In this document: piece by piece, positions 2,559 through 12,412 of the stretch
Position numbering within the stretch: position 1 is the stretch's first letter
Layout of the letters: each line of letters opens with the position of its first letter
Translations under genes and position numbers: made by a program
IMG/VR virus record: IMGVR_UViG_2675903352_000012
Length of the DNA stretch: 13,048 nt
Strand: one strand, 5' to 3'
DNA from: a virus
Lineage: Duplodnaviria; Heunggongvirae; Uroviricota; Caudoviricetes
Notes under the pieces: model-generated
The model's input: the letters and a program-made list of their open reading frames with translations, nothing else
Database searches by the model: none
Told to the model about the DNA's origin: nothing

Positions 2559-2831
2559 TTGGCAGACACTTTATATTTGTGTGCGGGTAACAATATATTA
2601 AGTTCTGAGGATGGAGAGAAAGATATATGCACCAATAAAAACAATATAGAACGATTATCTAAAACAATGAAGGATTTTTTTCGTGCGATGCTTGTTATTC
2701 ATTATAAAGAACTCGAAAACAATCCGGTAAAACTTGCTGATATATTGACCGCGGAAGCAAAAGAGGCAGGACTCAATATGCGCTTTGATAAAAGTACTAT
2801 ATCAAGATGGATTAAGGCATCATCTCAGTAA
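2559..2831 (+). CDS. Hypothetical protein; probably the 3' part of the same frameshifted gene (frame open from 2313)
   Basis: The track ORF starts at TTG 2559, but the frame has no stop back to 2313 and the first ATG is not until 2667. Low GC like the upstream ORF. Confidence 0.35.
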   Translation: MADTLYLCAGNNILSSEDGEKDICTNKNNIERLSKTMKDFFRAMLVIHYKELENNPVKLADILTAEAKEAGLNMRFDKSTISRWIKASSQ

Positions 2832-2926
2832 GACCAGCAAGCATCTTAATAAGACCTTTAATACTTGCTTTCAAAACTCCGTAAAACAAAAATCTCCCCC
2901 GAAAGTTCAGAAACATAGGGGGAAAT

Positions 2927-3247
2927 ATGACTCAATCCGCATTCATTCCACCAACTCCAGAACAGCGCCGCACCATACTCGCCGAGTATGGCTTTGACTG
3001 CGAAGAACGCATCAGGGAAGAGAAGTGTAAAAAAATGACCACGCTTTCACGCTCCCGGCGCTGGGAACTGGAGAAGATCGGTGCTTTTCCTCCTCGTCAC
3101 TCTTTGGGGCGTTGCTCATGTACCTGGCTGTTAAGTGATGTTTTGTGGTGGCTACGTAATCCGCCAGTTATTGCCAAAGTGAATAACCCATACGAAAACG
3201 CCAAAAAGAAAAGGGAGAGAGAATCCGGTAGCGCCAGAGTTGAATAA
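2927..3247 (+). CDS. alpA: AlpA-family phage/island transcriptional regulator (excision regulator-like HTH protein)
   Basis: 106 aa. Segment MTTLSRSRRWELEKIGAFPPRHSLGRCSCTWLLSDVLWWL fits the AlpA/Vis-type HTH pattern (LSRST.Y.L...G.FP.P..LG.R...W...EV..W). AGGGGG precedes ATG 2927. Position after the integrase matches CP4-57/P4-like layouts. Confidence 0.75.
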   Translation: MTQSAFIPPTPEQRRTILAEYGFDCEERIREEKCKKMTTLSRSRRWELEKIGAFPPRHSLGRCSCTWLLSDVLWWLRNPPVIAKVNNPYENAKKKRERESGSARVE

Positions 3248-3501
3248 GCGTTGGTGGTTTATTGCGTCCATCACTGGGTGGCAAAACTTACTGATCTGAA
3301 CGTATTGCTACATGTGGGGAAAGGAGGCCAAGTACTGACAGCAGAGCAAAAAAAGAAGCTCGCTAAAGCTAGCGAGCCAACCAGTCAAGGATGTGCATTT
3401 AATGCACCTAAAGTCAGCAATAAGAAGTAATAGGCAGAAATGATTATGGCTTTTTTACTCTTAAAAATCAATCACTCAGCGCAATCGCACAAAAATAATT
3501 T

Positions 3502-3541
3502 GCAATATTGCTTGACTCGCTTTTTTGTCATGGCGTATCGT
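3502..3541 (+). promoter_or_regulatory. Candidate sigma70-like promoter with an adjacent palindrome, upstream of the Icd-like operon
   Basis: TTGACT at 3512-3517, an 18-bp spacer, then TATCGT at 3536-3541. The perfect palindrome GCAATATTGC (3502-3511) abuts the -35 element. Pattern only; not verified. Confidence 0.3.
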
Positions 3542-3793
3542 TTGCCCGCACCTCATAAAGCGGGTGCCGGGTTTGACAGCCTGATTGTTAGAGCGGGTAG
3601 CCGCTATATTTCCGTAATGCGGTTTTTTTGTGCCCGTAATTCCACCCCACCCCGTATTATGGCGGGGCGTAATGGGGGAGCCTTTGCGCTCGCTGGTTTC
3701 TCTAACGCCAGTCTGTCAACCCTGTTACGTCCCGCCACCATGTTTGACAGCGTGCTGGCGAGACTCCGTAAATCAGTTAGAGGAGCCGCCAAA

Positions 3794-3967
3794 ATGGCTA
3801 TATCAACACGCCCTGATTTTATCTGGCGCTTTATGCAGTGCCACGGTAAAAATATCCGCCTTCATACCGTTACCGCTGCCAGTGAGCGCGAAGCGCGCGC
3901 CATGCTTCCGGCATCCCGTCTGGTCTTTGTTGCCCGTATCCGTGTCCGGGAGGCGTGCCATGTTTAA
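3794..3967 (+). CDS. Icd/Kil-like small protein (host cell-division inhibitor-like, P4 kil family)
   Basis: 57-aa product MAISTRPDFIWRFMQCHGKNIRLHTVTAASEREARAMLPASRLVFVARIRV... resembles Icd-like proteins of P4-like prophages as I recall them. GAGGAG (3780-3785) lies 8 nt before ATG 3794. The longer track ORF from 3440 has no such support. Confidence 0.55.
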   Translation: MAISTRPDFIWRFMQCHGKNIRLHTVTAASEREARAMLPASRLVFVARIRVREACHV

Positions 3968-4142
3968 GCTCCTTATCACCCTGATTAACTACCAGAACGG
4001 CGACGTTCGCCAGATGATTCATTCCTGGGAATATCCGACTTATGACGATGCATGGCGTGATGCCTGTCGTATGGCATATTCCCGCAATGACAAACAGGGG
4101 CGATTAACCCACAAATGCGCAGTAAAAATCATGGAGGGGTAA
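3960..4142 (+). CDS. Hypothetical small protein (60 aa)
   Basis: ATG 3960 is preceded by GGGAGG (3948-3953) and overlaps the Icd-like stop by 8 nt, suggesting translational coupling. Corresponds to the 3' part of track ORF 3630..4142. Confidence 0.5.
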   Translation: MFKLLITLINYQNGDVRQMIHSWEYPTYDDAWRDACRMAYSRNDKQGRLTHKCAVKIMEG

Positions 4143-4144
4143 CG

Positions 4145-4333
4145 ATGTACGAGATTCATATTAAATTGCGTAATGTGGTAACAGGAGAGGAAGAAAACTT
4201 CCACACGATACGTAAATATAAATCAAAAGGAAAAGCGGCAAGGGACGCTATCAGGTATACGGAAGAAATTGCGCCGAAATATCAATTGCCAGAAGAAGAA
4301 CTCACAGCATCAGTGGTAAAGGTGAAGAAATGA
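4145..4333 (+). CDS. Hypothetical small protein (62 aa)
   Basis: Internal ATG at 4145 (MYEIHIKL...) is preceded by GGAGGGG and sits 3 nt after the previous stop. Confidence 0.5.
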   Translation: MYEIHIKLRNVVTGEEENFHTIRKYKSKGKAARDAIRYTEEIAPKYQLPEEELTASVVKVKK

Positions 4334-4548
4334 AAAGCCGTTCAATATCCCGTAAAAATAATGGCAGTGGTGAAAAACGTTTCTTTGTGTTGGGTTATGC
4401 CGTTAATAAACGTGGGTTAACCAAACATGCACATGCAACGGTATACGGAACGGGACCGGGCGAAGCCATACGCCGCGCAGCCGAAGGGCTGGAAGAGCTG
4501 GGAATGACACATTTCAAAGCGTTGAAGGTGACGCAGCTTTCCGCCTGA
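4330..4548 (+). CDS. Hypothetical small protein (72 aa)
   Basis: Start overlaps the previous stop (ATGA). Same strand and tight packing with neighbours. Confidence 0.5.
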   Translation: MKSRSISRKNNGSGEKRFFVLGYAVNKRGLTKHAHATVYGTGPGEAIRRAAEGLEELGMTHFKALKVTQLSA

Positions 4549-4615
4549 TTCCCGAATTACCAACTGATAACTGAATTAAATTTATATTTCGATCTTAACG
4601 GGTCGGGGAGTTTTT

Positions 4616-4915
4616 ATGTCTGAAAATCAGAATATCCGCAATATATACAAAAAAGAATACGCTGGTTTTTTCACGGAAGATTCCATTGAGAATCTTGAAG
4701 ATGTAATAAATGTTATTGCGCTCCTTTCAGCATTGACAGGTGAAATTAATACCAGTGAGAGAATGCCAGTGCAAATTAATGAAATGGAATCATTAACTAA
4801 CATTCTTTATCGGGAATTACGAGCGATTAAGTCAGGAATGCATACTTCTGGCGGAATTTTTTCATGGCATAGTGCCGAAACCGCCGGGATTGCCAAAGCA
4901 ATAAGTAACGAGTAA
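4616..4915 (+). CDS. Hypothetical protein (99 aa), low GC, directly upstream of the primase gene
   Basis: GGGGAG lies upstream of ATG 4616. By position it could be an epsilon-like or accessory factor of P4-type left operons, but I recognise no sequence similarity. Confidence 0.5.
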   Translation: MSENQNIRNIYKKEYAGFFTEDSIENLEDVINVIALLSALTGEINTSERMPVQINEMESLTNILYRELRAIKSGMHTSGGIFSWHSAETAGIAKAISNE

Positions 4916-4925
4916 TTAATAAAAA

Positions 4926-4950
4926 CCCCACTGCAAAAGGTGCAGTGGGG
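4926..4950 (+). terminator. Perfect 10-bp stem-loop (possible intrinsic terminator or attenuator) abutting the primase RBS
   Basis: CCCCACTGCA (4926-4935), loop AAAGG, TGCAGTGGGG (4941-4950), followed by TGGAGTTTTATATATG containing the GGAG RBS and ATG 4964. Confidence 0.45.
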
Positions 4951-4963
4951 TGGAGTTTTATAT

Positions 4964-7633
4964 ATGAAATCTGACATCAGAAAAGAGATTATTAACCGTC
5001 TTATCCGTGATTACAACTTCAAAGAAGAAAATAACTACCTCCGGTATGGTGTTTGTCCGCAATGTGGAAAGAAAGAGTTGTTTACCAGCCTTGAAAGGCC
5101 GTACATCGTACACTGTGGGCGCGAAAATAAATGCGGTACAGACCTGCTGACCAAAGAACTTTACCCGGATGTGTTTTCATCATGGTCAGATCGTTATATC
5201 AGCACGAAAGATGAGCCATATGCAGCGGCGGCAGCTTATCTTCAGGAAGCGCGCAATATTGCTGTGGGGCCACTGAAGGGCGCATTTACTCAGGAGCGAT
5301 ACCAGGACAAGGAAAACGGCGAACAGGCCGCTACTGTGCGTTTTACGCTGGCTGACGGCGTGTGGTGGGAGCGCATCATAGACCGACCGGGACGCTTCGC
5401 GCGCAAGGCGAATTTTTCCGGCAGCTACAAGGGGTTGTGGTGGGCTTATCCGGGAGCAGATTTAAGCAAGGCCAAAGAAATCTGGATTTGTGAGGGCATC
5501 TTTGATGCCATCAGCCTTAACCAGAATGGCATTGCGGCCATTTCTGTCATGTCTGCCGTGAACTACCCTGATAAGGCGCTGGAAGAGCTGGCGAAGCTGT
5601 GCGGGGATAATCCCCGTCCGGTTATTGTGTGGGCCCTGGATAACGGGCGTGCGGGTGAACGTTACGCGAAAAAACATGCAGAACGCAGCGCCGAAGACGG
5701 CTGGAGAACGGCAGCGGCGTTGCCAGGTAAAAACAACAATAAACGCGACTGGAATGATTTACACATCGCAGGAAAGCTGCGTGGCCATGATGTGAAAAGA
5801 TACCGTTATTACGGTGATTTATTGCTGGCGAAATCTCCAAGAGATAAGGCACTAATAATGTTTTCCTTTCGTGAGCGGAAGGAATTTCATTTTACTTTTG
5901 ATAACCGTGTTTTCTGGTTCAAGCTGGACATTGAGCGCCATATGAAGGCTGTTGAGCGTGTCATTAATGAGCGAAATGTTGACGAAGACGAAGCGCGCAA
6001 AATTGCACTTAAGGAATCCGGCGCTGTAAAAGAAATCGCAAACTGTAACCCAGTGCCGCTTTATTACATTCGAAACAATGACACGGATGAAGCATGGTAT
6101 TACTTCCGCGTTACATTCCCGGATGGTGCTACGGTGAAAAACACCTTTACATCAGGACAATTAACATCCTCATCTGAATTTAAAAAACGCCTGCTGCACG
6201 TGGCAAAAGGCGGTATTTATACCGGAACGACTACGCAGCTTGACGCATTAATAAAAAATGACCTTCCCGCAATAAAAGAGGTTATTGGTCAGGATTTTAT
6301 CGGATACAACAAGGGAATTGGGGCATGGCTGTTTAATGATATTGCCGTTTACAAGGGTAAAACTTATGAAATCAATGATGAGGATTATTTTGAAATTGAT
6401 GGCATAAACGCAAAACCATTAAGCGAAAAACCCACATTACAGATTAACTACAAAAAACCGGATGAATTTACAGCGTCCTGGGTGGAAGATCTCTGGCTGG
6501 CTTTTGGTGAAAAGGGAATTATTACCCTGGCTTTCTGGTTGGGCTCCCTGTTCAGCGAACAAATCCGGGATAAAGAAGAATCCTTCCCCTTCCTTGAAGT
6601 CACCGGGGAGCCCGGAACGGGTAAATCAACACTGATTGATTTTTGCTGGCGGCTGTGCGGTCGTGACAACTATGAAGGCGTTGATCCAACCAAAGGATCA
6701 GAGGCGGGCTGGAAGCGCACCTTTGGACAGGTCGCCGGATTACCTGTTGTTCTGATTGAAGCGGACCGGGGAGACAATGCGCAAAAAAGAGGTGCGTTTG
6801 ACTTCGATAACCTGAAAAGTCTCTATAACGGCGGCGGTATCGGCGTTCGTGGTGTTAAGGCCAACAATAACAACACCTATGATCCGGATTTTAAGGGCGC
6901 TATCGTGATTGCGCAGAATGCGCGGGTAAACGCCTCTCCGGCAATTATTGAGCGTCTGATACGCATATACACCGATAAAAAACGCCATTCACCTGATACC
7001 CGCCTGGCGGCGAGACGGCTGGAACTTTACCCCGTCGAGAAGGTATCTGGGTTTATTCACCGGGCGGTAAGTCAGGAACGGGCGATTATGCAAACGTTCC
7101 TGGAAGTATCTCCAGTTGAAACGGAGCGCCTTTGCGGATGCGAAAATATTCGCCATCCCCGCATCGCCAAAAATCACGCACAACTTATCGCGCTGGTCAG
7201 GGCGCTGAAATGCGTTATTGATATCCCGGATGAATGGCTTGATGCCACATGTCTGGAACTGGAACAAATGGCAACAGCGCAGGTTAAAGCGGCGGCGGCT
7301 GATTTACCGGAAGTGATGGAGTTCTGGGAGGCGTTCGACTTCCTGGACGGCATAACAAAATACGGTGTAAACCACTACGGCAAGGGATGCCGCGAGGGGA
7401 TTGCTATCAGTATTCCGCAACTGGCACAGGCTGCCGCTATTCACCGCGTGGAGATCCGAACTGACCGCGAAATGATTGAGTTGCTCGGAGCCGGACGTTC
7501 CCGACCTTTGACAGGCCGCAAAACCATTCGTAGTGAGGTCTCCAGACAGGCAAACGCCGGAAGAGGGGTCGCCGAGGCCAGAGAGCCGGAAGTACTGAAA
7601 TGCCGGATATTCAGTTACAAGGAGGGGCGTTAA
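4964..7633 (+). CDS. Bifunctional replication protein: zinc-finger/TOPRIM primase fused to a P-loop helicase (P4 alpha-like)
   Basis: About 889 aa. N-terminal CPQCGKKE...HCGRENKCG zinc-binding motif; TOPRIM-like IWICEGIFDAISL and ALDNGRAGER; Walker A GEPGTGKST and Walker B-like VVLIEAD in the C-terminal half. Start taken at ATG 4964 (GGAG RBS) rather than the track's 4940. Confidence 0.85.
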   Translation: MKSDIRKEIINRLIRDYNFKEENNYLRYGVCPQCGKKELFTSLERPYIVHCGRENKCGTDLLTKELYPDVFSSWSDRYISTKDEPYAAAAAYLQEARNIAVGPLKGAFTQERYQDKENGEQAATVRFTLADGVWWERIIDRPGRFARKANFSGSYKGLWWAYPGADLSKAKEIWICEGIFDAISLNQNGIAAISVMSAVNYPDKALEELAKLCGDNPRPVIVWALDNGRAGERYAKKHAERSAEDGWRTAAALPGKNNNKRDWNDLHIAGKLRGHDVKRYRYYGDLLLAKSPRDKALIMFSFRERKEFHFTFDNRVFWFKLDIERHMKAVERVINERNVDEDEARKIALKESGAVKEIANCNPVPLYYIRNNDTDEAWYYFRVTFPDGATVKNTFTSGQLTSSSEFKKRLLHVAKGGIYTGTTTQLDALIKNDLPAIKEVIGQDFIGYNKGIGAWLFNDIAVYKGKTYEINDEDYFEIDGINAKPLSEKPTLQINYKKPDEFTASWVEDLWLAFGEKGIITLAFWLGSLFSEQIRDKEESFPFLEVTGEPGTGKSTLIDFCWRLCGRDNYEGVDPTKGSEAGWKRTFGQVAGLPVVLIEADRGDNAQKRGAFDFDNLKSLYNGGGIGVRGVKANNNNTYDPDFKGAIVIAQNARVNASPAIIERLIRIYTDKKRHSPDTRLAARRLELYPVEKVSGFIHRAVSQERAIMQTFLEVSPVETERLCGCENIRHPRIAKNHAQLIALVRALKCVIDIPDEWLDATCLELEQMATAQVKAAAADLPEVMEFWEAFDFLDGITKYGVNHYGKGCREGIAISIPQLAQAAAIHRVEIRTDREMIELLGAGRSRPLTGRKTIRSEVSRQANAGRGVAEAREPEVLKCRIFSYKEGR

Positions 7634-7635
7634 AC

Positions 7636-8640
7636 ATGCCGATCAGAAAGATGCATGATGGGCGGTGGCTGCTCGATATCAGGCCATGCGGACGTAAAGG
7701 GAAGCGCATCAGAAGAATATTTGACAAAAAATCGATAGCTACAGCAACTGAACGGTACATCATAGCGAACGCCGAAAAGCGCGAGTTTATACAGGGCTAT
7801 CGCGACCGGAGAACGCTTAGCGATTTACTGGAATTGTGGTGGGTTTATCACGGTCAGCACAGGCGAAAGGCAAACACGGATAAACAGCAGCTTGGCAAAA
7901 TTATTAATGAGCTTGGAGCTGGCATGTTTGCGGTAGAACTCGACAAATTAAAAATCATTGCATGGCGATCGCAGAAAATTGCGGAAGGATTAAAGCCGTC
8001 CTCAGCAAACAGATACATGAACAGATTATCGGGGATGTTTACAGCCCTGAAAAAGATCGGTTTGTGGGATGCAGAGCATCCGGTTCGTGGTATTCCTGTT
8101 CTTTATGTAAAGCAGCAGGAAATGGCCTTTTTATCAAAAAACGAGGTCACATTGTTGCTTGACGGGCTGAATGGAGATCAACGAAGGGTTGCGCTCTTGT
8201 GTCTTTGTACCGGAGCCCGCTGGAGTGAGGCCAGCAGATTGCATGGAGAGCAAATAGTTCATCACAGAATAACGTTTCTGGAAACCAAAAACGGTAGAAA
8301 AAGAACGGTGCCTGTGTCGCAGGAAATATGCGATGCCGTAAAAACAAAAGAAACCGGGCGACTGTTTGATGTGAAGTACAGAGAGTTTTGCCGGGCATTA
8401 AAAAAAATAAAACCCGATTTACCGAGGGGGCAGGCTGCGCATGTATTGCGGCATACATTCGCCAGTCACTTTGTGATGAACGGTGGCAACATTCTTGCGC
8501 TACAAAAAATCCTTGGGCATGCGACAATTCAGCAGACTATGGCATACGCACATTTTGCACCGGATTATCTGGCAGATGCCATGAGATTTAACCCGGTAGC
8601 CAACATAGTGATCACCGAAGAAAAAGACCCAGTAGAGTAA
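7636..8640 (+). CDS. int: Tyrosine site-specific integrase, P2-type (second recombinase)
   Basis: About 334 aa. N-terminus MPIRKMHDGRWLLDIRPCGRKGKRIRRIFDKK resembles the P2 Int arm-binding N-terminus as I recall it. Catalytic motifs TGARWSEA, HVLRHTF, LGHATIQQTMAYAH. GGAGGGG RBS (7621-7627) lies inside the primase 3' end; ATG 7636 is 2 nt after the primase stop. Confidence 0.85.
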   Translation: MPIRKMHDGRWLLDIRPCGRKGKRIRRIFDKKSIATATERYIIANAEKREFIQGYRDRRTLSDLLELWWVYHGQHRRKANTDKQQLGKIINELGAGMFAVELDKLKIIAWRSQKIAEGLKPSSANRYMNRLSGMFTALKKIGLWDAEHPVRGIPVLYVKQQEMAFLSKNEVTLLLDGLNGDQRRVALLCLCTGARWSEASRLHGEQIVHHRITFLETKNGRKRTVPVSQEICDAVKTKETGRLFDVKYREFCRALKKIKPDLPRGQAAHVLRHTFASHFVMNGGNILALQKILGHATIQQTMAYAHFAPDYLADAMRFNPVANIVITEEKDPVE

Positions 8641-8669
8641 CCCGCAGAACGCTACATTCACAGCAAAAG

Positions 8670-8696
8670 AGGTCAGTTTCCCGCTGACCTTTTTTG
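8670..8696 (+). terminator. Rho-independent terminator after the second integrase
   Basis: AGGTCAG (8670-8676), loop TTTCCCG, CTGACCT (8684-8690), followed by a T-run to 8695. Confidence 0.6.
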
Positions 8697-8876
8697 TTGG
8701 CCAGAACCAACGGTAACAGCAATGCAATGGTGGCCATATTGCAGTGGTGCCGCCATCAATTTTTTGCCCCCCTGATTATCAGAAAGAGTCAAATAATGAC
8801 GAGATACATTTTAATCACAGAGAGTTAATGAGATAAGTGAGTTTAATTAACATTTTAAAGGGTCGCGCTAAAGTTT

Positions 8877-9186
8877 GGGGGGGGATGCGCAAAGCGGTTA
8901 CAACGGTTACAAATTTAGAATTACTTATTTTTGTATTATATATCAATATATTATAACTGGTCGGATGAGTTACAAAAGCGGTTACAACGCGGTTACATGT
9001 AACCGTTTTGTTAGGTTACAGGCGGTTACAGGTTAAGTTTTTAATTGATTGATAATAAAGTGCTTTTTGAAACCTGTAACCGTTGTAACCGCAAAGCGGT
9101 TACAAATAATATCCATTAAAATCATGTTGTTAAGTGGTGTTTTTGACTGTTGTAACCGTTGTAACCGCTTTGCGCACCCCCCACCG
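8877..9186. repeat. Iteron array bounded by ~35-bp imperfect inverted repeats (candidate replication origin/crr or recombinase arm-site region)
   Basis: Twelve perfect GGTTACA/TGTAACC copies, starting at 8896, 8905, 8980, 8991, 8999, 9014, 9024, 9075, 9084, 9098, 9151 and 9160, with 9-11 bp spacing in both orientations. The left arm (8877-8912, G8 + ATGCGCAAAGCGGTTACAACGGTTACA) is the near-exact inverse of the right arm (9151-9186). The interior is AT-rich. Confidence 0.7.
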
Positions 9187-9409
9187 GATTATGAGGCAGA
9201 GCCCCAAAACAACTGGCCTGACCTCCAACAAAAATGCAACATCAATCATTGATTTTTTGGGGGCTGTCAGTCACGGGGAGTTGCCCTGTTGTTTGGCAGA
9301 AAAATGAAGTATGTACATGCGCGGCGGGGATGGTAAAAAACGTAATACACGCGGCGCAGTTGCCATAAAAAATCTCTCAAAAGCACTCTTTTTGACGCTA
9401 TTGTTCATC

Positions 9410-9436
9410 TGCACAAAAGTGCACAAATTTGCACAA
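9410..9436. repeat. Three tandem 10-bp repeats of TGCACAA
   Basis: TGCACAA at 9410, 9420 and 9430, with a fourth copy at 9502. Non-coding region upstream of the ogr-like gene. Confidence 0.4.
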
Positions 9437-9798
9437 TTTTTTAGAGTAACTTTTTGCCCATCCGGCCCAGTACTGGCGCGCCCGGAGGGCGATTTCGTGC
9501 GTGCACAAAAAACGGTGAGTTTTTCGCGCGCAGGTGACGGGGGAACAGCACGCGTTTCAGGGGGTAAATTACATTTTCGCTAAAGGCTGCGGGAATGCCC
9601 CGACCGGGTTAGTTTTATCGCCAGCCAGAGCCGTTCTTACGGCAAGAGAGAACTGATACGGGGAATGTGACGAGTGAGCATGGGAACGGCGCGCCCGTGC
9701 GTAATACGCGGCGACTGCTGCGGGTTTATTTGATACAGCCAGAGGGGGCGGCAGAAGATATAATAGGTTAAATTTCACACCAGTAAGAGGAGCGTGAT

Positions 9799-10430: not shown

Positions 10431-11141
10431 ATGGATATAACTCAGGCAAGCGCCGAACATCAGGTATGTAAAGCACAGTTTGATACAGCCATGGCAAAAC
10501 TCAGTGAACAGGAATCATTAATCACCAATCTGGAAGCAACTATCGAACAGACGAAAGGGGAGCTGGAATCTCTCGATCGTGACTGGCAGAACTCAATCCT
10601 GTCTGCGCTGGGCGTAAAAACGGAAGCCTCCGCGAAATTATCCATTCAGGCGGGTGTGGCGCGAGAAAATCTTGAGCGTCTGCGGGTGCTGCATGATGAG
10701 GCGCGCATCAGGCTACTGGAGTGTCGTTATAACGCGGCAGAGGCTGGTTGTGCTTACGAAAGCATTGATAATAAGTTACGGGCAGAGATATTTGCAAAAG
10801 CACTTCCCGAACTGATTAACGAGCTGACCCCTGCTCTGTTATTGATTCGTGGTTTATGTGAGCTGCTTGGCCAGCCGCTGTATAACGCAGAAAAGAAAAT
10901 ATGCGAAACACTGAAAGCGACAGATACTGCTGAAAGTGTCGGGATGATTCGCGGCCGGATTAACGATACCGAAAGCGACACCTCCAGCCCGCTGCGTTAT
11001 TGCCCGGAGAAACTCCCGGATTCGGTAAGCCGCGCAATCAGGAACGCCCCTTCACCTGTACAATGGAGCGCAGCGCGACAGAATCCAGAAAAAATGCGCG
11101 ACCTTGCGGAGGGCAGAGAACTCTGCCGGGGGTGGCAGTAA
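10431..11141 (+). CDS. Hypothetical coiled-coil-rich protein (236 aa); possibly Psu/Sid-like or scaffold-like
   Basis: AGGAG RBS 10420-10424. The stop overlaps the downstream start (TAATG at 11139-11143). The N-terminal half has heptad-like, helix-rich composition. Any similarity to P4 Psu is a weak recollection only. Confidence 0.6.
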   Translation: MDITQASAEHQVCKAQFDTAMAKLSEQESLITNLEATIEQTKGELESLDRDWQNSILSALGVKTEASAKLSIQAGVARENLERLRVLHDEARIRLLECRYNAAEAGCAYESIDNKLRAEIFAKALPELINELTPALLLIRGLCELLGQPLYNAEKKICETLKATDTAESVGMIRGRINDTESDTSSPLRYCPEKLPDSVSRAIRNAPSPVQWSAARQNPEKMRDLAEGRELCRGWQ

Positions 11142-12412
11142 TGGGCGGTCTGAATACTCCACATTTGCACGGCGCTGATATAGTGAGCCGACTCAGGGGA
11201 TTAATGTCCCGGAATCGCCTGAAAGCAAACACAGCAAGCATAAGCGATGAGACGCGTCGCGCGCTGGACAATGAATATCAAAAACTGGAGCGTGAGCTTG
11301 AGCTTCACACCCTGCATACTGCAAGCGGTGGGGGTAATAACGACGGCATTGAGCGTTATAATTGCACTGCTGATTCTGTTGTATCACAACGAAATCAACA
11401 GGCTCAGATGGTTTTCAATTGCGCTATCGAGTCGATAACCGGAAAACATCCGAAGGATTTGCACTTTTCCGGTGACACTGCGCGCTATTCGTCAGAAGTT
11501 GAACCCGTTCCTCGCCAGAGTGCAACGCTTGCCAGTGGATGGCAGGCAAATTTCCTTGCTGAAATAACTCCCGTGCCTGTTACGGATATATCAGGTCGGG
11601 TTGTGCTGGTAGACGCTTCGGGGCCGTTGGCACGTACATCGCCACCTCACGAGCGCCGTTCGCCACTACAGGCGCATTCACTGGTTTCAAGGGGCTACCG
11701 CTGCGAGCAGGTTAATTTTGATTTTGCGCTGAACTACGACAATGTTGATGCTCACGCATCCGCAAACGGTCTTGAAGGAAGCGCACGGGCTGCTTTTGAA
11801 CGCCGGAAATGGCTGGATTTGATTCAGATTGGTTTTAACGGTACGCACTATGCCGATACATCAGATCCCGGAACATATCCGGGGCGTGATGATTGCGGCG
11901 TGGGCTGGTTGCAGAAGTTTCGAAATGAAGCGGCGGGAAGGGTTATCAGCGGCCTTTCTGTTTCATCACCGAAAAGTAATACACGCGGTACACACCATAC
12001 GATAGATGCGCTCGTTCTGGATGCCTGGCAATCCATGATTGATGAACAGTGGCAGGAAGGCATTGTGGCCGTATGCAGTCACAATACGCTGGTCCGTAAG
12101 CAATGGCCTTTGATAAACCGTCTTGATCCATCGCAGATGAATCAGGAAATTTTGCTTAACGAGGAAATCATTAAAAATCCTGTTCTGGGGAATCTCCCGG
12201 CTGTGACCGTTCCATTTTTCCCGGACAATGCTGTATTGATCACACCTCTTGCCAATCTGTGTCTGTACTGGCAGCGTGGTTCCGTTCGTGGCCTGGTAAA
12301 AAACGAGCCTCAGTATAATCGTCTCGCGTTCTATGAGTCCTGTAACCTTGACTGGGTGGTGGGGCAATATGAAGCAGGGTGCTTACTGGATGGGATTGAC
12401 TGGAAAGAATAG
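11141..12412 (+). CDS. P2 gpN-like major capsid protein homolog with an N-terminal extension of about 90 aa
   Basis: 423 aa from ATG 11141. The C-terminal 270 aa carry motifs I associate with the P2-family capsid protein: CEQVNFDF, IGFNG, GVGWLQKFRNEAAGRV, IDALVLDA, GNLPAVTVPFFPDNAVLIT, YESCNLDWVVGQYEAGCL. The N-terminal part contains a coiled-coil-like stretch (RRALDNEYQKLERELEL). Based on memory; needs a homology search. Confidence 0.55.
   Translation: MGGLNTPHLHGADIVSRLRGLMSRNRLKANTASISDETRRALDNEYQKLERELELHTLHTASGGGNNDGIERYNCTADSVVSQRNQQAQMVFNCAIESITGKHPKDLHFSGDTARYSSEVEPVPRQSATLASGWQANFLAEITPVPVTDISGRVVLVDASGPLARTSPPHERRSPLQAHSLVSRGYRCEQVNFDFALNYDNVDAHASANGLEGSARAAFERRKWLDLIQIGFNGTHYADTSDPGTYPGRDDCGVGWLQKFRNEAAGRVISGLSVSSPKSNTRGTHHTIDALVLDAWQSMIDEQWQEGIVAVCSHNTLVRKQWPLINRLDPSQMNQEILLNEEIIKNPVLGNLPAVTVPFFPDNAVLITPLANLCLYWQRGSVRGLVKNEPQYNRLAFYESCNLDWVVGQYEAGCLLDGIDWKE

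Follow-up and report, generated by a model that had tools for sequence, protein, structure and literature searches.

An array of GGTTACA heptamers downstream of a PHROG 1139 primase-helicase is the probable replication origin of a satellite of P2-like phages

The window analyzed here (the whole stretch of DNA, 13,048 bp) corresponds to a ~12.5-kb island that in Escherichia coli lies between gcd and hpt. It begins with a P4-type integrase gene (559-1761), an AlpA-like regulator, a C4-type antisense RNA in an Icd-like gene, and several small ORFs. These are followed by a primase-helicase, a second integrase of the P2 family, a hairpin (8670-8697), the repeat array that is the subject of this report, and a region of cos homology (9409-9569), and then by an ogr/delta-like gene, a 236-aa ORF, a P2-family major capsid gene, and mazEF. 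Because of this gene content, combined with a cos region and an integrase of the P88-like type, we interpret the window as a satellite of P2-like phages (P88-like/Xuanwuvirus). Its cis-acting sites cluster in 8641-9790. The genes and sites that frame the array are as follows.

4940-7633, + strand: primase-helicase with Zn-finger, Toprim, and SF3-type P-loop domains; an 897-aa ORF of family PHROG 1139 and the proposed initiator
7636-8640, + strand: second integrase, P2-Int family, with an intact catalytic set; located between the primase and the array and unlinked to the latter
8670-8697, + strand: terminator-like hairpin with a T run at the 3' end of the primase-integrase transcription unit, upstream of the array; conserved in relatives
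8877-9186, no strand: whole repeat array (repeats and arms), the proposed replication origin (ori/crr-like cis region), with an architecture kept 3' of homologous primases in 18 further loci
9409-9569, + strand: homology to the cos region of P88-like (Xuanwuvirus) helpers (77% identity, E = 7e-30, across the end/start junction of NC_049391)

The start of the primase-helicase annotated in relatives corresponds to position 4964, and the true start of the second integrase is 7636. The hairpin at 8670-8697 also scores on the - strand. No RNA family was recovered in the array by an Rfam scan, the only match in the window being the C4 antisense RNA at 3655-3742 (RF01695, 72.8 bits), which lies either within the Icd-like gene or upstream of it; this represents a P1/P7- and P4-style RNA immunity module in a satellite with a non-P4-like primase. 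A tRNA search of the window found none. The region of cos homology does not belong to the array, from which ~220 bp separate it, and represents a cis site of its own; it contains three TGCACAA repeats and is probably the cos site of the satellite. Matches to its first 37 bp occur in about 420 E. coli genomes, presumably through P88-like prophages, and an ORF annotated in relatives at the equivalent of 9311-9583 is probably spurious. The satellite encodes its own P2-family major capsid protein, after the 236-aa ORF, which has no family match (window 10431-12412); in one related locus, L003, this gene pair (2760-4698) is placed elsewhere, between the AlpA-like regulator and icd. No homologue of sid or psu was recognized; in place of a Sid-type size determinant, the satellite contributes a capsid protein of its own.

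Counted on both strands, GGTTACA occurs 14 times in the 13,048-bp window against an expectation of 1.2, and none of 200 shuffles reached 14. Twelve of the 14 exact GGTTACA/TGTAACC heptamers lie inside 8896-9166, with seven on the + strand (8896, 8905, 8980, 8991, 9014, 9024, and 9098) and five on the - strand (8998, 9075, 9084, 9151, and 9160), which bears out a preliminary description of this DNA that had reported twelve perfect copies in both orientations within about 300 bp. A 13th site in the array is a degenerate AGTTACA at 8968 (+), and the two remaining exact copies in the window (6044 and 12341) are isolated and lie within genes. This clustering of 12 exact heptamers and one degenerate heptamer in 271 bp of non-coding DNA is far above chance. 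The array starts 237 bp 3' of the second integrase, whose gene directly follows that of the primase-helicase, in keeping with the location given earlier, just downstream of both genes. From left to right, it is composed of the following parts.

8877-8912, + strand: left inverted arm, with a run of eight G, GCGCAAAG, and then direct heptamers at 8896 and 8905, 9 bp apart
8912-8967, no strand: first AT-rich spacer (GC 18% over 8900-8959), with an exact IHF consensus at 8941-8953 (+)
8968-9030, mixed strands: inner left site cluster, with AGTTACA at 8968 (+) and GGTTACA at 8980 (+), 8991 (+), 8998 (-), 9014 (+), and 9024 (+)
9031-9074, no strand: second AT-rich spacer, with an exact IHF consensus at 9042-9054 (-)
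9075-9104, mixed strands: inner right site cluster, with sites at 9075 (-), 9084 (-), and 9098 (+)
9105-9149, no strand: third AT-rich spacer, with conserved ATCA and GTTTTTG motifs
9150-9185, - strand: right inverted arm, with heptamers at 9151 and 9160, then CTTTGCGC, and then a C run

The two inverted arms are 36 nt each, 94% complementary, and separated by 237 nt, and each contains two heptamers 9 bp apart. Such arms had been described earlier, and they are real, but the right one had been placed one base off. Likewise, the helical-repeat spacing claimed for the heptamers applies within doublets, where the intervals are 9 to 11 bp, but not to the other intervals (7, 12, 14, 16, 51, 53, and 63 bp), which are no multiples of the helical turn. 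The sites at 8991 and 8998 stand back to back and form the palindrome GGTTACATGTAACC, a pair kept in all aligned relatives. Close relatives have 13 exact heptamers, with one extra (-) copy in the inner right cluster; an 11-bp deletion near 9082 removed one heptamer from the window, leaving 12 versus 13 in the closest relatives. A second 11-bp deletion relative to these lies at ~8830, upstream of the array. Since close relatives differ by 11-bp indels, the small ORFs that can be drawn across the array are not conserved. The best identity to a complete E. coli genome is at most 97.1% over the 801-bp region 8650-9450 and at most 95.7% over 8760-9300.

Base composition sets the spacers apart from their surroundings: the flanks have 45-55% GC, the other spacers 30-37%, and the stretch 8900-8959 as little as 18%. 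By its composition, the first spacer (8912-8967) is a candidate unwinding region. The two exact IHF consensus matches in the spacers are the only ones in the whole window, and they lie in opposite orientations; the second spacer further has an ATTGAT/ATTG core that is kept in relatives. DnaA boxes are not enriched, and no exact match to one occurs within the array. Promoter-like matches are present in the array interior on both strands.

The heptamers are better preserved than the DNA between them. Among E. coli relatives, identity to the window is 99.7% in heptamer columns versus 88% in spacers, and across genera the corresponding values are 85% and 47% (permutation p <= 2e-4 in both cases), a pattern from which purifying selection on the heptamer sites is apparent. 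An alignment of 12 arrays from different genera revealed a fixed layout. Its left half consists of a G run, CGGAAA, GTTACAA-n2-GTTACAA, and an AT-rich spacer with the ATTGAT core. The middle has inner sites that include the back-to-back GTTAC(A/G)TGTAAC pair, followed by a second AT-rich spacer. The right half is made up of two or three inverted sites plus a direct one, a third AT-rich spacer, TGTAAC-n3-TGTAAC, and TTTCCG. Accordingly, the position occupied by GCGCAAAG in the left arm of the window reads CGGAAA in most relatives (cross-genus consensus GGG..CGGAAA..GTTACAA..GTTACAA) and that of CTTTGCGC in the right arm reads TTTCCG. The base before TTACA, which is G in most lineages, switches at all sites of an array together in a given lineage, GTTACA becoming CTTACA in Arsenophonus and ATTACA in Klebsiella indica and Enterobacter. 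Read from the aligned sites, such concerted change is the pattern to be expected of a set of sites co-evolving with one binding protein.

To place the array in context, we surveyed 80 loci encoding relatives of the primase, using one genome per species, and scanned each locus (designated below by L and a number) for its densest short-repeat cluster and for an integrase homologue. Besides the window, 18 loci have NNTTACA heptamer arrays of the same architecture (~270-310 bp) at 0.2-1.4 kb from the 3' end of the primase gene; their primases are 50-90% identical to that of the window, and they are drawn from at least 10 genera. The genera with arrays are Escherichia, Kluyvera, Erwinia, Izhakiella, Pectobacterium, Samsonia, Klebsiella, Enterobacter, Providencia, Proteus, Xenorhabdus, and Arsenophonus, along with one Mycoavidus locus. 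The preliminary description had listed, among the findings that together would refute it, that no related element conserved the array; these 18 loci conserve it. The primase-helicase is the only protein of the window common to all array-bearing loci. The array, by contrast, is found with very different integrases or with none: in L002 and L004, the integrase at the same position is 53% and 49% identical, respectively, to that of the window, and the array still consists of 13 GGTTACA copies; in L012-L016 and L027, the array is present and the integrase is absent; and L017-L019, L025, L028, and L060 have an integrase gene that is encoded upstream, on the opposite strand. E. coli islands with other outer integrases or insertion sites (gcd/hpt or tRNA-Arg) also keep the primase-integrase-array module. 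Thus, co-inheritance of the array with the primase, and not with the integrase, is what is observed across these diverged loci.

Array-bearing loci also occur in phages. L017 is a P2-like prophage with a repressor, the primase, the array, a cargo gene, and a portal gene in that order, and the gene contexts of L019, L028, and L060 suggest that they, too, are P2-like prophages with the same type of array 3' of the primase. Because L017 is a genuine P2-like prophage that carries the array, phages and satellites share this presumed origin type; and because the same type occurs in P2-like prophages of Providencia and Proteus, the satellite appears to carry a phage-type module of primase plus origin. 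The scans found no comparable array beside primases that are at most ~51% identical in the enterobacterial P2-like prophages L020-L024 or in Betaproteobacteria, and therefore the link between primase family and origin type is not universal; the scans next to primases of at most ~48% identity likewise recovered none, with the proviso that a degenerate or differently organized origin would escape them.

Two of the surveyed loci deserve separate mention. In the betaproteobacterial fungal endosymbiont Mycoavidus cysteinexigens (L080), a GTTACAA-type cluster of seven copies with a doublet and an inverted doublet (10530-10810) lies ~3 kb downstream of a 43%-identical primase; it is the sole array that was detected outside Enterobacterales. 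In Providencia rustigianii (L018, 7794-8690), two complete arrays of different variants (CGTTACA at 8029-8299 and GGTTACA at 8423-8682) and a half array (7805-7884) lie beside a single primase, which is ~96% identical to that of L017, where there is a single GGTTACA array. The multiple arrays of L018 could reflect duplication or capture of an origin, or a path to specificity switching.

The family of the primase-helicase, PHROG 1139, comprises the replicase of phage phiCTX, Ralstonia phage RSY1, phage Dobby, and Escherichia phage ESSI2_ev239 (41-51% identity). P4 was absent from the phage matches, and BLASTP comparison with P4 alpha gave no similarity beyond the Toprim (E = 0.003) and Walker-A (E = 2e-4) motifs. 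A sequence search against the PDB gave no match, and the solved origin-binding domain of P4 alpha was not retrieved. Orthology with P4 alpha is thus ruled out, as the likeness is confined to the Toprim and Walker-A motifs. The C-terminal ~200 aa are the least conserved part of the protein. Between the near-identical primases of L017, which has GG iterons, and L019, which has CG iterons, divergence is concentrated in this same stretch, and a change of a C-terminal xGxK motif to IRK or IRT (G to R) matches non-G iteron cores, with two or three independent events, a correlation confounded by phylogeny. In a predicted model, the region folds into a helical bundle and a small winged-helix-like domain, and we propose that it is this variable C-terminal region that binds the heptamers. 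As a separate observation, the window and L004 both have KCRIF at a C-terminal motif (7615-7633) that is otherwise nearly invariant as KCW(V/I)F; R here replaces a W that at least 90% of homologues retain.

Taken as a whole, the sequence evidence makes it very probable that the array is a replication origin, or an ori/crr-like cis region, of the replicon defined by the adjacent primase-helicase. What we observe directly is that the repeats exist, are conserved, and are linked to the primase; from this, we infer that the primase binds the array and that replication fires there. Upon induction of the satellite, the primase-helicase would recognize the GTTACA-core heptamers through its variable C-terminal region. 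The mirror-symmetric layout, with the end doublets pointing inward and sites of mixed orientation inside, would position oppositely oriented oligomers, probably two hexamers, and IHF may bend the DNA at its two consensus sites. Melting of the AT-rich spacers would then allow the SF3-type helicase to load itself and the Toprim domain to prime, resulting in bidirectional theta replication without DnaA. The second integrase would merely sit between the primase and its origin. An iteron origin bound by an alpha-type protein had been put forward in the preliminary description; the tracking of the array with the primase across genera agrees with the first part of that proposal, but the protein is not an orthologue of P4 alpha.

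We considered several alternative explanations. The heptamers could be arm-type sites of the adjacent P2-family integrase, as was also proposed at the outset, in which case the segment would be an attP-like or multimer-resolution site. The integrase is certainly well placed for this, being adjacent and catalytically intact with the residues R-K-H-R-H-Y invariant in the alignment; its N-terminal domain is P2-Int-like, P2-type phages have their attP, with paired direct arm repeats, immediately after the 3' end of int, and the doublets and IHF consensus sites of the array are attP-like as well. However, the array is unchanged beside integrases only 49-53% identical and persists where there is no integrase nearby. 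The phages most closely related in this respect also use other motifs: the second integrase is 81% identical to those of P88-like phages such as Chuche and P884B11, in whose attP, directly 3' of int, TGTCCAC doublets flank the core on both sides, and a second P88-like group, in which the arm repeat is TGTCCAT, has an integrase 87.5% identical to that of L002. These doublets have an 11-bp spacing, a GGTTACA cluster was looked for in the int regions of the nearest P88-like phages and none was found, and TGTCCAC is missing from the 13,048-bp window. Furthermore, the homology of the satellite int to the phage genes ends at residue ~321, just before the phage arm sites, and the sequence on either side of int is conserved among the islands despite the swapping of the int ORF. 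GGTTACA was accordingly rejected as the arm motif of the integrase, and we regard an arm-site function as improbable. A composite of the two functions, with the array serving as both an origin and a recombination site on which the helper-type integrase acts, is likewise quite unlikely. It would entail that the arm-binding domain of the integrase was retargeted to the heptamers, or that the integrase is recruited by the primase, so as to resolve replication products or couple replication with recombination. The evidence argues against it; if true, such a combined site would be of a kind undescribed so far in satellites.

The second integrase gene itself behaves as a cassette that is exchanged among otherwise near-identical islands. 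Three lineages, 49-53% identical to one another, are represented by the window (7636-8640), L002 (8988-9989), and L004 (8990-9991), and two of these are 81% and 87.5% identical to integrases encoded by the likely helpers, two groups of P88-like (Xuanwuvirus) phages. In the satellites, the gene stops just short of the phage arm-type sites, and a matching att site is absent. One may speculate that the enzyme acts in trans on att sites of the helper, for example, in excision of the helper prophage.

A third alternative is that the array is a packaging accessory site, recognized by terminase or its small subunit beside cos, or else a centromere-like partition site serving a plasmid state. Partition and packaging sites, too, can contain arrays of short repeats on both strands, so the form of the array would fit, and it lies only ~220 bp from the region of cos homology. 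Yet in the P2-like prophage L017, the array is immediately next to the primase, and the portal gene, near which cos would be expected by analogy with the P88-like record (there, cos is beside the portal gene), is ~4 kb away. Moreover, the P88-like helpers share the cos region and not the array, and no ParA/ParB-type gene was recognized among the window ORFs searched. A role in packaging or partition therefore also seems doubtful in the extreme.

Still less probable is that the 237-bp interior is a fimS-type invertible switch, flipped at the 36-nt arms by the adjacent tyrosine recombinase and controlling the downstream late genes or cos. Inverted arms framing a ~240-bp segment beside a tyrosine recombinase, with promoter-like matches on both strands inside, are what such a switch might look like, and the possibility of an invertible segment had been raised earlier. 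However, all 61 E. coli genomes with the array are collinear over a single piece covering 82-100% of a query of 541 bp that comprises the array and its flanks, and thus none shows an inversion, although assemblies record the majority orientation and rare flipping would escape. Across genera, the asymmetric inner sites also keep their order and orientation, and the same structure exists in the absence of any nearby recombinase. We accordingly ruled against inversion, no inverted copy having been recovered. Finally, that the segment is a MITE-like or other mobile insertion, an earlier suggestion to which its small size and 36-nt terminal inverted repeats lend some resemblance, is hardly credible, given that it occupies one or two places per E. 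coli genome, all chromosomal, stands in the same context 3' of the primase module in every locus examined, has no visible target-site duplication at the arm ends, and has repeats that extend into the interior, the whole unit co-evolving with the primase.

We return, then, to the array as an origin read by the primase-helicase. Most likely, it belongs to a kind of element already known, an iteron origin beside its initiator gene, well preserved and in that sense unsurprising. A search of the literature for the motif, for the origin of the PHROG 1139 or phiCTX-type replicon, and for this type of satellite found nothing specific. The array would offer a concrete, testable origin for a widespread replicon, that of the PHROG 1139 primase-helicases of phiCTX/RSY1-type P2-like phages and satellites. 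Its fixed mirror-symmetric layout and concerted iteron switches form a natural series for studying how a self-loading SF3-type primase-helicase might read its origin and how origin specificity evolves. The analysis also corrects a tempting misassignment of the repeats to the neighboring integrase, and the array and the adjacent cos homology map the cis-acting sites of the satellite, which should be useful for annotation and for minimal satellite vectors.

Among known systems, the closest functional analogue of the array is the crr/ori of P4, both elements being satellites of the P2/P4 type. In the P4 record, crr (4291-4590) occupies ~300 bp of non-coding DNA immediately 3' of the alpha gene and its terminator talpha (4604-4628). 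Type 1 repeats, the iterons of crr and ori to which the alpha primase-helicase binds, are 8 bp long and occur ten times in crr, in both orientations and in 9-bp doublets. The array resembles it in being a cis region 3' of a terminator with mixed orientations and 9-bp doublets, except that here an integrase gene intervenes, and P4 alpha and the window primase have the same order of Zn-finger, Toprim, and SF3 P-loop domains. In contrast, the P4 type 1 repeat, TGTTCACC, has no copy in the window, and alpha belongs to another PHROG family with only motif-level similarity (the E values of 2e-4 and 0.003 given above). P4 also needs two separated clusters (ori and crr), whereas the array is a single one, and crr is a tandem 120-bp duplication, unlike the mirror-symmetric array. 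A second parallel is with the origins of SaPIs and of the SCCmec elements with Cch/Cch2, in which iterons around AT-rich DNA are located directly downstream of the gene for a self-loading initiator helicase. In SaPIs, the iterons directly downstream of rep are read by the C-terminal domain of Rep, and for both groups specificity resides in the C-terminal domain of the helicase, which apparently binds as two hexamers (PMC7581432). These systems differ in their Gram-positive hosts, in the helicase family, in having a separate primase protein, and in the lack of any sequence relationship. Like the array, P2-type attP sites directly follow a P2-family int gene and have paired direct repeats and IHF-like sites; they differ in the arm motif and its 11-bp spacing, and the array is not inherited together with the integrase. 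A further comparison is with the replication module of the P2-like phages of the phiCTX/RSY1/ESSI2 type, which have a primase of the same family (PHROG 1139; 41-51% identity); the enterobacterial prophages L020-L024 differ in having no such array, and the P2-like prophage L017 has the same type of array directly 3' of its primase.
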